NCBI GenBank assembly: GCA_963767925.1
Contig: CAVYGB010000002.1
Coordinates: forward strand, 640,001 to 704,000
Reading direction: 5' to 3'
DNA from: an uncultured delta proteobacterium
Lineage (GTDB): Bacteria > Myxococcota_A > Polyangia > Fen-1088
DNA length: 64,000 nucleotides
Shown here: positions 17,270 through 20,301 of the stretch, one piece after another
Position numbering within the stretch: the stretch's first letter is position 1
Layout: each line of letters starts with the position of its first letter
Notes under the pieces: model-generated
Seen by the model: the letters and a program-made list of their open reading frames with translations, nothing else
Database searches by the model: none
Told to the model about the DNA's origin: nothing
Program-made: the position numbers and the translations under genes

Positions 17270-18898
17270 TCAGGTCGCCGTCTGACCGGCGGTCGTCTCC
17301 CCCTTGCCCCCCTTGGCGAACAGCACCGGGCCGCCGGGCGGTGGCTCGGTCCAGCGGCCGCGGCCCCAGGAGAGGGCGGCGGGCCAGTCGCCGGGCGTGG
17401 GCGGAGGCTGGGCGAGCTGGGCGCTGATGGCGGCGGACGTGGCGGGGAGGAAGGGGGCGAGGGCCAGGCCGGTGATCCGGACCGCCTCGATGGCGTGGTA
17501 CAGGACCGCGGCGAGGCGGGCGCCCGCGGCCTCGGCAGCGGGGGAGTCGGCGGCGGCGGCGCGGGCCAGGGTCCAGGGGGCCGTCTGCTCGAGGTAGCGG
17601 TTGGCGCCGGCGACGCACTCGAAGACCGCGGCCAGCGCCTCGTCGGCGGCGTGGCCGGCGAGCGCGCCCTCGAGGCGGCCGGGCAGCGCTTGCAGATGGG
17701 CGCGCAGGGCGTGGTCGGGGGCCTCGTCCGTCCCGGCGCGCGGGGGGTGCCGGGACCAGCTCCGCTGCACGAGGGTGATCGTCCGGCGCACCAGGTTGCC
17801 GAGCTGATCGGCCAGCTCGGCGTCGCGCGCGCCGACCAGCCGGGCCTCGCTGAAGTCGGTGTCCTCGAAGGGGCGGATGTGGCGCAGCAGGTAGTGGCGC
17901 ACGGCCTCGGTGCCGTGGCGGGCGACCAGCGCCTCGGGATCGACGGCGTTGCCCAGCGACTTTCCGATCTTCCGTCCGTCGACGGTGAGGTAGCCGTGCA
18001 CCAGCAGATCGCTGGGCAGCGGCAGGCCCGCCGACAGCAGGATGGCCGGCCAGTGGACGGCGTGAAAGCGGAGGATGCCCTTGCCCAGGACGTGCAGGCG
18101 GCCCCCAGCGCCGGCCCAGAACCGCCGGTAGGCCGGGGCGTCGCCGGTCCAGCCGAGCGTGTTCACGTAGCTCGAGAGCGCATCGAACCAGACGTAGACC
18201 ACCTGCCCGGGATCGCCGGGGACCGGGATGCCCCAGCCGCGCGCCCGCCCGCGCGCCCGCGACACGCTGATGTCCTCGAGCCCGCCCGCGAGGAACCCCA
18301 GCACCTCGTTGCGCCGCGAGCGGGGGGCGATCTGCAGGTGGCCCGCCTCGATCAGGCGCAGGAGGGGATCCCGGTAGCGCGACAGGCGGAAGAACCAGTT
18401 CTCCTCCTCGACCACCTCGGGGGCGGTGCCGTGTTCGGGGCAGCGGCCGTCGGTGAGGTCGGCGGCGTCGAAGAACCCTTCGCAGCCGACACAATACAGC
18501 CCGCGGTAGGGACGCCGGTACAGGTCGCCCGCGCGCAAGCAGGCGCGCCACAGCGCCTCGACCCCCGCGCGGTGGCGGGGGTCGGCGCCGGTGTGAATGA
18601 AGTCGTCGTACGACAGGTCGAGGGCCCGGCCGAGCGCCAGGAACCGCCCCGCGTTCTCCGCCACCAGCGCCTGGGGCGACACCTGCGCCCGCTCGGCCGC
18701 CTGCACGTTCTTCAGGCTGTTGTCGTCGGTGCCGCTCTGCAGGTGCACGGGCCGCCCACGCAGGCGCTGGTAGCGCGCGAGCGCATCGGCCAGCACCGCC
18801 TCGTAGGCGAAGCCGACGTGGGGGGCGGCGTTCACGTAGGGGATGGCGGTGCTGATGTAGAAGGGCTGGCAGAGAGACGGGGCAGCGTTCGCGTTCAT
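17270..18898 (-). CDS. metG: Methionine--tRNA ligase (short form, no C-terminal dimerisation domain)
   Basis: FYISTAIPYVNAAPHVGF, SGTDDN, YCVGCEGF..CPEH knuckle, EENWFFRLS, WGIPVP, YVWFDAL, FHAVHWPA, HGYL, KIGKSLGN. Confidence 0.93.
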   Translation of the reverse strand: MNANAAPSLCQPFYISTAIPYVNAAPHVGFAYEAVLADALARYQRLRGRPVHLQSGTDDNSLKNVQAAERAQVSPQALVAENAGRFLALGRALDLSYDDFIHTGADPRHRAGVEALWRACLRAGDLYRRPYRGLYCVGCEGFFDAADLTDGRCPEHGTAPEVVEEENWFFRLSRYRDPLLRLIEAGHLQIAPRSRRNEVLGFLAGGLEDISVSRARGRARGWGIPVPGDPGQVVYVWFDALSSYVNTLGWTGDAPAYRRFWAGAGGRLHVLGKGILRFHAVHWPAILLSAGLPLPSDLLVHGYLTVDGRKIGKSLGNAVDPEALVARHGTEAVRHYLLRHIRPFEDTDFSEARLVGARDAELADQLGNLVRRTITLVQRSWSRHPPRAGTDEAPDHALRAHLQALPGRLEGALAGHAADEALAAVFECVAGANRYLEQTAPWTLARAAAADSPAAEAAGARLAAVLYHAIEAVRITGLALAPFLPATSAAISAQLAQPPPTPGDWPAALSWGRGRWTEPPPGGPVLFAKGGKGETTAGQTAT

Positions 18899-18899
18899 G

Positions 18900-18993
18900 G
18901 TGGTCCTCCTCGGGGAAGGCCCGGGCACAGCCGAGGACCACGGCGGCACGACCAGACGCGCCCCGGGTCCCCGACGGCGACCCGGGCGTCTGG
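18900..18993 (-). promoter_or_regulatory. Putative translational attenuator: hairpin 1 plus SD-sequestering hairpin
   Basis: Inverted repeats 18952-18969/18979-18993, and GTGGTCCTC (18900-18908)/GAGGACCAC (18933-18941) overlapping the metG SD GGAGG (18905-18909). Confidence 0.7.
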
Positions 18994-19007
18994 CTGGCTC
19001 GTTGCGC

Positions 19008-19085
19008 TCAGCTCATCGGCCGCACGGGTGCACCGCGCATGGTCATGCGCATGGACATCCGGCGGCGAGAGCAGTGAACGGTCAC
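19008..19085 (-). CDS. Putative Met-rich leader peptide of metG
   Basis: (V/M)TVHCSRRR-MSMRMTMRGAPVRPMS*; alternative ATG start at 19058; five ATG codons; TGCTATCTT -10-like box at 19096-19104. Confidence 0.7.
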   Translation of the reverse strand: MTVHCSRRRMSMRMTMRGAPVRPMS

Positions 19086-19287
19086 GATCGGCTCGAAGAT
19101 AGCAGAAGCAGCGGCGGAGAAGCGAGGGCGCCAGATCCGGCGCGGGCCGTAGGGCGACGGAAGCGGTGGGTGGCCGTCCGCCCGACGGCCTTGTATTGTC
19201 GCCTCCCATCACATGCCCATACGATTGTTTCCCCGCGAGATCTCCCCGTCGACCCGTTCGGGGCGCCCCTGATGACCGAGGCCGCTC

Positions 19288-20301
19288 TTGGATAGCCACT
19301 TCCTGCTCGTGTGCGCGGTGGTGCTGGCCGCGCTGGTGTTCGACTTCATCAACGGCTTTCACGACGCCGCCAACTCCATCGCCACCGTCGTGTCGACCCG
19401 GGTGCTCAGCCCGCGGCAGGCGGTGGCCTGGGCGGCGTTCTTCAACTTCGTGGCCTTCGCCGTCTTCGACCTGCACGTCGCCAGCACCATCGGCAAGGGC
19501 ATCGTCGCCCCCGACGTGGTCGACATGGCGGTCATCATCGGCGCCCTCGGCGGGGCCATCGCCTGGAACCTGCTCACCTGGTGGGGGGGCCTGCCCTCCA
19601 GCTCCTCGCACGCCCTGGTGGGGGGGCTGATCGGGGCGGGGATCTGCAAGGCCGGGCTGGGCGCCCTCGGCTGGTCGAAGATCGGCATCACCGCCCTGTT
19701 CATCGTCGTCTCGCCGGTGCTGGGCCTCCTCGGGTCGAGCCTGCTGATGATCGGCCTGAGCTGGCTGCTGCGCCGGCAGTCCCACGGCCGGGTGGACCTG
19801 TGGTTCCGCCGCTTGCAGCTCGTCTCCGCCGCCGCCTTCAGCCTCAACCACGGCGGCAACGACGCCCAGAAGACCATGGGCATCATCGTGGTGCTGCTCT
19901 TCTCCCAGGGCTACATGGGCCAGACCTTCCCCACCAGCGAGCAGATCCCCTTCTGGATCGTGCTCTCCTGCCACGCCGCCATGGGCCTCGGCACCCTCAG
20001 CGGCGGCTGGCGCATCGTCAAGACCATGGGCATGCGCCTGACCAAGCTGCGCCCCTTCGGCGGCTTCTGCGCCGAGACCGGCGGCTCCGCCGCCATCTTC
20101 ATCGCGACCTTGCTGGGCGTCCCCGTCTCCACCACCCACACCATCACCGGCGCCATCGTCGGCGTCGGCGCCGTGACCCGCCCCAGCTCCGTCCGCTGGG
20201 CCATCGCCCGCCGCATCCTCTGGGCCTGGATCTTCACCATCCCCGCCTCCGCCGCCATCGCCGCCATCACCTACCTCCTGGCCCGCGCCGCCGGCATCTG
20301 A
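19288..20301 (+). CDS. pit: Inorganic phosphate transporter, PiT family
   Basis: NGFHDAANSIAT, GLPSSSSHALVGG, HGGNDAQKTMG, GVPVSTTH. Confidence 0.92.
   Translation: MDSHFLLVCAVVLAALVFDFINGFHDAANSIATVVSTRVLSPRQAVAWAAFFNFVAFAVFDLHVASTIGKGIVAPDVVDMAVIIGALGGAIAWNLLTWWGGLPSSSSHALVGGLIGAGICKAGLGALGWSKIGITALFIVVSPVLGLLGSSLLMIGLSWLLRRQSHGRVDLWFRRLQLVSAAAFSLNHGGNDAQKTMGIIVVLLFSQGYMGQTFPTSEQIPFWIVLSCHAAMGLGTLSGGWRIVKTMGMRLTKLRPFGGFCAETGGSAAIFIATLLGVPVSTTHTITGAIVGVGAVTRPSSVRWAIARRILWAWIFTIPASAAIAAITYLLARAAGI

Follow-up and report, generated by a model that had tools for sequence, protein, structure and literature searches.

A short open reading frame (sORF) rich in methionine codons precedes metG, the gene of an accessory methionyl-tRNA synthetase (MetRS), in the genome of an uncultured Myxococcota bacterium. 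It probably encodes a leader peptide through whose Met codons the expression of this gene is adjusted to how much charged elongator tRNA-Met is available. The locus lies in a stretch of 64,000 nucleotides (nt) of a 9.3-Mb genome (GenBank assembly GCA_963767925.1, contig CAVYGB010000002.1, positions 640,001 to 704,000 of the forward strand). This whole stretch is called the window here, and coordinates refer to its first letter unless another contig is named. The reading is carried by the anatomy of the leader, its conservation in a relative of the same genus, the tie between Met-run sORFs and this clade of metG genes across phyla, and the accessory status of the gene itself, all of which can be seen directly in the genomes compared.

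The sORF is located on the same strand as metG, and its stop codon (19010-19008) stands 110 nt before the metG ATG. Its ATG codons occupy positions 10, 12, 14, 16, and 24, the first four alternating with other codons. The parts of the locus are the following:

19096 to 19104, minus strand: -10-like box TGCTATCTT, a candidate promoter element, 10 nt 5' of the sORF GTG
19008 to 19085, minus strand: leader sORF, 25 codons and a stop, with the translation VTVHCSRRRMSMRMTMRGAPVRPMS
19038 to 19058, minus strand: Met run M-S-M-R-M-T-M, codons 10-16, containing the 17-nt block ATGTCCATGCGCATGAC
19020 to 19037, minus strand: segment S1, a candidate anti-hairpin segment from the 3' portion of the sORF (codons R17-P23), able to pair with S2 of hairpin 1
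18952 to 18993, minus strand: hairpin 1, the candidate decision hairpin, with S2 as its 5' arm (about 18993-18974) and S3 as its 3' arm (about 18972-18952)
18930 to 18941, minus strand: segment S4, the anti-Shine-Dalgarno segment (anti-SD), pairing either with S3 (18976-18958) or with S5
18899 to 18912, minus strand: segment S5, the metG Shine-Dalgarno sequence (SD) GAGGAGG, 6 nt before the metG ATG, with its spacer
17270 to 18898, minus strand: metG, accessory MetRS paralog of 542 amino acids (aa), start ATG at 18898, matching Pfam tRNA-synt_1g with 277 bits

An earlier note on this DNA had described the sORF with its five ATG codons, hairpin 1, a 9-bp stem covering the metG SD, and two alternative pairings, and these elements proved to be present. 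The coordinates and translation of the sORF are correct, and hairpin 1 (18993-18952) folds alone with -31.7 kcal/mol. The 9-bp stem (18941-18933 with 18908-18900) is perfect, has a duplex energy of -22.2 kcal/mol, and takes in the spacer together with the 3' portion of the SD. Both alternative pairings can form, S1 with S2 (19037-19020 with 18989-18974) at -24.4 kcal/mol and S3 with S4 (18976-18958 with 18946-18929) at -27.3 kcal/mol.

A Met run of this density is rare in the genome. At 71.2% G+C, ATG accounts for 0.8% of trinucleotides, and four in-frame ATG codons within seven stop-free codons occur 110 times over 18,673,986 positions on both strands. From this frequency, about 0.002 such runs are expected in an intergenic region of 389 nt, which is the length of the region 5' of metG. 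A genome-wide hunt for a regulon of Met-run sORFs returned 181 candidates, most of which were coding sequence read out of frame or antisense, and was dropped as too noisy; it also skipped the sORF of the window, whose stop-to-stop frame exceeds 60 codons.

Similar sORFs recur upstream of homologous metG genes. At 154 homologous loci drawn from collections of genomes and metagenomes, each with at least 200 nt of upstream sequence, the 300 nt 5' of metG were scanned for at least three ATG codons in eight stop-free in-frame codons. By this strict criterion, a Met run is present on the coding strand at 30 of the 154 loci and on the reverse strand at 12, while 100 dinucleotide shuffles of the same regions gave a mean of 2.06 loci (standard deviation 1.38, maximum 6). 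Met-run sORFs are thus enriched about 15-fold (30 against 2.06 expected), a figure to be read in the knowledge that a few matches (L074, L116, and L117) fall in upstream coding genes and that related loci are not independent. In an earlier set of 79 loci, runs had been present at 18 loci in the forward and at 6 in the reverse direction. The carriers belong to Rhizobiaceae, Pelagibius, Gammaproteobacteria, Caldilineaceae (loci L036 and L105), Latescibacterota, Bdellovibrionota, Actinomycetota, and Myxococcota. In the carriers of lower G+C (Rhizobiaceae, Pelagibius, Gammaproteobacteria, and Caldilineaceae), an sORF of about 25 codons holding MMM or M-x-M-x-M stands ahead of a G+C-rich hairpin that runs into a U-tract, and the metG SD comes next, an arrangement that in sequence looks like the textbook layout of a classical attenuator. 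Across the Myxococcota carriers, the U-tract fades as G+C rises.

The tie to this group of synthetases is closest within the clade of the window gene. In its non-actinobacterial part, 12 of 18 rows satisfy the strict criterion, and the other six (L042, L037, L046, L081, L041, and L045) have sORFs with two Met codons spaced 1-3 codons apart. Housekeeping-type metG genes served as the comparison, with 28 loci from relatives of the same family or class and the looser criterion of two ATG codons at most 3 codons apart. This flagged only two of the 28 (L007 and L026); in the last 40 residues of the flagged frames, to which inspection was confined, L007 has no Met and L026 only an M-P-T-M pair. No clear Met-run leader was found among the housekeeping-type metG genes of these 28 relatives.

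Among lineages, the Met codons stand in differing nucleotide contexts (ATGATGATG, ATG-NNN-ATG), which indicates that the common feature is the codon and not a DNA word. Some resemblances go beyond Met. The motif M-[S/A]-M-R-M recurs in L047, a gammaproteobacterial metagenome-assembled genome (MAG), in the metagenome contigs L133 and L145, and in the Caldilineaceae MAG locus L036; in L047, L133, and L145 its DNA (CCATGCGCATG) is nearly identical to that of the window. In Alphaproteobacteria, a Pro codon often stands right after the MMM runs. The tail RGAPVRP (19014-19037, minus strand), two codons before the stop, is common to the window and L081, a Myxococcota MAG with 55% MetRS identity, and five of its seven codons differ only at the third base, a possible sign that the peptide itself is constrained.

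Such resemblances could also be explained by nascent-peptide arrest, in which a peptide of the form M-x-M-R ... R-G-A-P-V-R-P would itself halt the ribosome, perhaps under the influence of Met or a drug, and hungry Met codons would not be the signal. In favour of this explanation, L081 has the tail equally far from its stop codon and with the third-base differences just mentioned, the similar MRGPHVR occurs in L133 and L145, and M-[S/A]-M-R-M recurs in distant phyla. However, the relative from the same genus lacks the RGAPVRP tail, and most carriers have only the Met codons in common. Moreover, any frame at 71% G+C is richest in R, G, A, P, and V, so the RGAPVRP match may be due to chance. We therefore regard peptide arrest as improbable.

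Further evidence comes from the relative of the same genus. Across 40 relatives, the window MetRS has one close ortholog, in this genus, with 68% protein identity, and the other best matches range from 37 to 46%. Upstream of the ortholog, a homologous frame ending in CRSGRMSMRMTLRRASAPTSSMRSFI and a stop codon lies in the same place. The 17-nt block ATGTCCATGCGCATGAC is identical there, including its non-Met codons; both arms of hairpin 1 are conserved, their core arms being identical, and so are the anti-SD core GGTCCTCG and the SD. The intergenic regions of the two genus members show 72-80% column identity, with long unalignable parts outside these conserved blocks. The divergent neighbour in the relative, judged by eye, is a different frame and not the PHO4-family gene found in the window. 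Since this neighbour differs while metG stays, the conserved blocks belong to metG.

These comparisons also bear on pure chance, that is, on a GC-rich intergenic region that merely happens to hold ATG codons and many hairpins. GC-rich sequence does self-pair easily, as the shuffled pairing controls below illustrate. On the other hand, a Met run was hardly to be expected in a region of this length, the Met block is conserved in the same genus, and the enrichment extends over 154 loci, so chance was already a very unlikely explanation and has next to nothing left in its favour.

The window metG is an accessory paralog. The earlier note had missed this fact, which alters how the physiology is to be understood. 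Three MetRS-like genes came out of a Pfam search over the entire assembly. The first, on contig 8, is a long form whose KMSKS motif is intact; the second, also on contig 8, is of the housekeeping type and is read in two frames after about 140 residues, a break that may be a real frameshift or an assembly indel error; the third is the window metG. The MetRS-like loci on contig 8 carry the labels L195, L197, and L198, and the gene just ahead of the second one is, judged by eye, presumably PSP1-like. A FastTree phylogeny was built from 89 rows. Besides the window it contains 11 housekeeping copies from relatives and 77 of the 80 genome-contig loci, namely those that yielded 380 residues or more, L003 being excluded for an internal stop. 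In this tree, the window MetRS pairs with the same-genus copy (support 100) in a clade of eight rows that also includes other Myxococcota, a proteobacterial MAG, a Terriglobales row, and a Pseudomonadales row, while the housekeeping MetRS copies of the family lie across the root, alongside sequences of the Candidate Phyla Radiation (CPR).

In four of the five other carrier genomes checked, the leader-bearing metG is likewise a second or third MetRS gene; in the fifth, whose completeness is not given, only one was found. The extra MetRS in the window genome and in these four fits an inducible back-up enzyme. The window protein has HVGF in place of the usual class I HxGH and KIGKS in place of KMSKS. 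As HxGF is present in 61 of 158 related loci, it is a trait of the subfamily and not a sign of decay; the idea that it marks a dead enzyme was rejected, since it also occurs in lineages where this is probably the sole MetRS.

From these observations we infer translation of the sORF, stalling of the ribosome, and an output step, which together would work as follows. When Met-tRNA is plentiful, the ribosome would reach the stop codon at 19010-19008 and cover S1, and hairpin 1 (18993-18952) would form during transcription. Hairpin 1 would then halt or pause transcription, or leave S4 clamping the SD, or do both, and metG expression would stay low. When Met-tRNA is short, for example if the other MetRS enzymes are limiting or inhibited, the ribosome would stall at Met codons 10-14 and leave S1 naked, so that S1 could bind S2 while S3 is still to be transcribed. 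Left without its partner, S3 could take S4, the SD would open, metG expression would rise, and charging would be restored. Written as a relay of five segments, a stall would give S1:S2 and S3:S4 with a free SD, and no stall would give hairpin 1 and S4:S5 with a clamped SD. Hairpin 1 occupies the position where relatives carry an intrinsic terminator, and the U-tract fades with G+C, which makes premature termination an equally fair candidate for the output. By our weighting, SD masking by itself and the combination of both outputs appear about equally plausible, and premature termination by itself (without a U-tract, or Rho-dependent) hardly less so.

Computed folds are partly in line with this scheme. 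The 231-nt leader folds better than 200 of 200 dinucleotide shuffles (z -2.99). Constrained folds were calculated with a ribosome footprint from -18 to +12 nt around the A-site codon and with the nascent transcript cut in the loop of hairpin 1. With the ribosome at Met10, Met12, or Met14 and S3 not yet made, S1 and S2 pair; with the ribosome at the stop codon, or with none, S2 is left free. The leader of the same-genus relative likewise shows S1 pairing that depends on ribosome position in nascent folds, and a rougher analysis, read for L064 and L081 only because L045 and L041 had been given wrong starts, gave a similar dependence at these two loci.

Several observations weigh against this reading, beginning with the start of the leader. 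The start codon of the sORF is uncertain and may be the GTG at 19085 or the first ATG at 19058, and no clear SD was found before either by reading the sequence. A consensus scan of the leader region called no sigma-70-like promoter. The -10-like box of the earlier note thus stands 10 nt before the GTG, as described, and remains a candidate only, because the scan does not bear out its role as a promoter; if it were one, the sORF would be leaderless or nearly so. Met limitation would also starve initiator tRNA, and a severe shortage might leave the leader untranslated.

Other adverse points concern the comparison within the genus. The exact architecture of the window is known from two sequences only, too small a basis for covariation, and a metagenome scan for closer relatives, with 80 loci, yielded none above 64% identity and none with this architecture. 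In the MAFFT alignment of the two leaders, the register slips by one base at the hairpin loop, and the helices were therefore compared in each genome separately. An apparent compensatory change in S3:S4, from U-G in the window to A-U in the relative, is a single event.

The folding results likewise contain evidence to the contrary. No U-tract follows hairpin 1, as the earlier note had remarked, and the terminator scan found no terminator-like site on the minus strand; hairpin 1 is thus not a canonical intrinsic terminator. As a pairing control, the first segment of each pair was shuffled 300 times, and shuffles reaching the observed duplex energy were counted. For S1:S2 they numbered 12 of 300 in the window and 45 of 300 in the same-genus relative, for S3:S4 33 and 113, and for S4:S5 10 and 28, so that the predicted alternative pairings beat shuffled GC-rich controls only weakly. 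In all full-length or post-hairpin constrained folds, hairpin 1 forms whatever the position of the ribosome; as it wins once fully transcribed, a switch could only be kinetic. In both genomes, the minimum-energy fold of the full-length leader is a third structure, with a 5-bp local SD hairpin and a long hairpin that joins outer S2 to 18925-18919 and S3 to S4. Computed SD accessibility in the window is 0.34 in all three forced states, and in the relative it is 0.17, 0.35, and 0.43, a modest spread.

No public sequencing run contains the stretch, the best share being 0.13, and the matched contigs give no start, end, or level of a transcript. One of these contigs, of 151 nt, matches 18969-19119 with 4 differences. 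Another, a soil-metagenome contig of 270 nt and depth 3.8, matches 18782-18865 (metG codons) and 18963-19050 (the sORF and the 5' arm of the hairpin), and 99 unlike letters replace window positions 18866-18962, where the anti-SD, SD, and start region are located. Neither contig speaks for or against expression, and the relative behind the second may have a different output platform.

A last point on the opposing side lies in the Met block, which contains the 10-bp palindrome CATGCGCATG; together with the identity of its non-Met codons in the relative, it is unexplained by Met sensing alone. This opens the way to a different view, in which the block would be a DNA operator for a transcription factor in the divergent promoter region and the reading frame a by-product of high G+C. 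The palindrome is perfect, all 17 nt are identical in the relative, the block sits in a divergent intergenic region, and long spurious frames, such as the 414-aa frame described below, are common. On the opposite side, the block has a single exact copy in the genome, and with 2 mismatches only 3 copies against 1 for a reversed control. The one near-match examined, at contig 8, 2662770-2662786 (minus strand, locus L033), is located antisense inside an H+-pyrophosphatase gene, in surroundings rich in out-of-frame ATG runs, and is taken as a chance occurrence, not a second leader. On these grounds, a repeated operator was ruled out. In addition, the neighbouring gene is not conserved in the relative whereas metG is, and other lineages keep the Met codons without the palindrome. 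An operator at this block is unlikely.

The alternative with the most to be said for it, although still unlikely, is a structured 5' untranslated region (UTR) read by a protein or small molecule, for example by MetRS in autoregulation or by another RNA-binding protein, acting on hairpin 1 and the anti-SD stem, with incidental Met codons. Conservation is highest in hairpin 1, the anti-SD, and the SD, the stem covering the SD is real, the leader has the folding z-score given above, and the ribosome-dependent pairings are statistically weak. Such a UTR would leave unexplained why Met-run sORFs stand before this metG clade in unrelated contexts with ordinary terminators. No tRNA-like element was seen in the leader folds by eye. 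In Rfam 15, no match at gathering score was found between 18600 and 19500 of the window, where the only hit was a miRNA model with 19.1 bits against 78, nor in nine related leaders, where Phe_leader (RF01859) came to 29.8 at one relative, below its threshold of 55.

A Met-codon leader that senses Met-tRNA thus remains the preferred reading, and the interpretation offered in the earlier note fares differently in its two parts. The idea of such a leader gains strongly from the conservation in the same genus, the enrichment seen when upstream regions of MetRS homologs are compared (30 of 154 loci against 2.06 expected), and the terminators of relatives. The proposal that control is translational, with the named pairings freeing the SD, does not gain: these pairings stand weakly above shuffles, the minimum-energy fold differs, and hairpin 1 sits at the terminator site of relatives. 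Folding under ribosome footprints gives the S1 pairing in nascent RNA, but hairpin 1 forms regardless once it has been transcribed.

On the far side of the leader, the intergenic region is divergent and flanked by a gene for a PHO4-family phosphate transporter (19288-20301, plus strand). A 414-aa frame at 18895-20139 (minus strand) spans the entire leader antisense to the PHO4 gene and has no Pfam match; it appears to be an artefact of high G+C, a typical trap in such genomes, and could conceal the sORF from gene callers. On the plus strand, a terminator-like hairpin with a T-run is located at 19172-19190 of the window, about 100 nt upstream of the PHO4 start, and could be a leader element of the transporter gene or the end of a short transcript antisense to the metG leader region.

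Leader-peptide attenuation is a textbook mechanism for Trp, His, Leu, Thr, Ile/Val, and Phe, including E. coli pheM-pheST. To our knowledge, Met is the odd one out, partly as it also starts the leader peptide. The locus shares with pheM-pheST and with the trp, his, leu, thr, and ilv attenuators a short ORF of cognate codons followed by a hairpin predicted to depend on ribosome position, and pheST also encodes a synthetase; relatives of the window locus share the full hairpin with a U-tract as well. Unlike the classical systems, the window leader would use Met, which also serves initiation, has no U-tract, has a second stem masking the SD, and precedes an accessory paralog. It is not a member of the Rfam Phe_leader family, of which no match occurs between 18600 and 19500 of the window.

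Translational attenuation by drug-caused stalling in a leader ORF is known from ermC and cat, while mgtL is a leader with Pro codons that acts through Rho and responds to Pro or Mg2+ status. In these systems, as proposed here, a stalled leader ribosome re-pairs the RNA and frees an SD or hides a termination signal, and a canonical terminator is not needed. The window leader differs from them in that its sole recognisable signal is the run of Met codons and its relay is only weakly above shuffles. In Firmicutes, T-box leaders of metS and metG, including those of second MetRS copies, sense tRNA-Met charging by binding uncharged tRNA directly. Control of MetRS by tRNA-Met charging would be common to both designs, whereas neither a T-box nor another Rfam family was matched at 18600-19500 of the window.

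The closest published analogues found are attenuators of the classical kind that precede aminoacyl-tRNA synthetase genes in Actinobacteria (PMC1262725) and the cysS upstream ORF (uORF) motif uORFC-8-2 of Rhodobacterales, a predicted uORF with Cys codons and a terminator before a synthetase gene (PMC8632094). The latter resembles the metG leader in being a cognate-codon uORF before a synthetase gene predicted by comparative genomics, and it differs in amino acid, gene, and clade and in belonging to the cysS of the organism and not to an extra copy. The word metG is absent from the main text and the one searched supplement of that paper. A Met-codon leader of metG was not found in the searched parts of the full-text literature, including PMC1262725, PMC4833913, PMC13285730, PMC11109978, and PMC8632094; the supplement of PMC11109978, which lay outside the search, might list such a motif. 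This agrees with the remark in the earlier note that no Met-codon attenuator has been characterised. What appears to be new here are the carriers in Myxococcota and Proteobacteria, the tie to an accessory MetRS paralog, and a version that lacks a U-tract and clamps the SD.

A broader and more tentative view, which we consider possible but less probable than not, is an ancient cross-phylum module. A horizontally spread accessory MetRS would travel with its own Met-codon leader, often of the form M-[S/A]-M-R-M, as a self-contained spare synthetase inducible by a charging deficit, stepping in for instance if inhibition, damage, or starvation affects the main MetRS; in high-G+C Myxococcota, its terminator would have been rewired to the five-segment relay ending in SD masking, possibly helped by the RGAPVRP tail.

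If true, a Met-codon leader recurring in Chloroflexota, Proteobacteria, and Myxococcota would demonstrate that the charging of elongator tRNA-Met can be sensed by a leader peptide, and cultured carriers such as Neorhizobium petrolearium (DSM 26482, locus L039) and Pelagibius offer clean test cases; Umezawaea endophytica is a further cultured carrier of the canonical form. The link to an extra MetRS suggests a general design in which a spare synthetase stays silent until charging fails, a design that bears on tolerance to MetRS inhibitors and methionine stress. The version in the window, with a hairpin lacking a U-tract and an SD clamp, would be a natural experiment in the adaptation of an attenuator to very high G+C.

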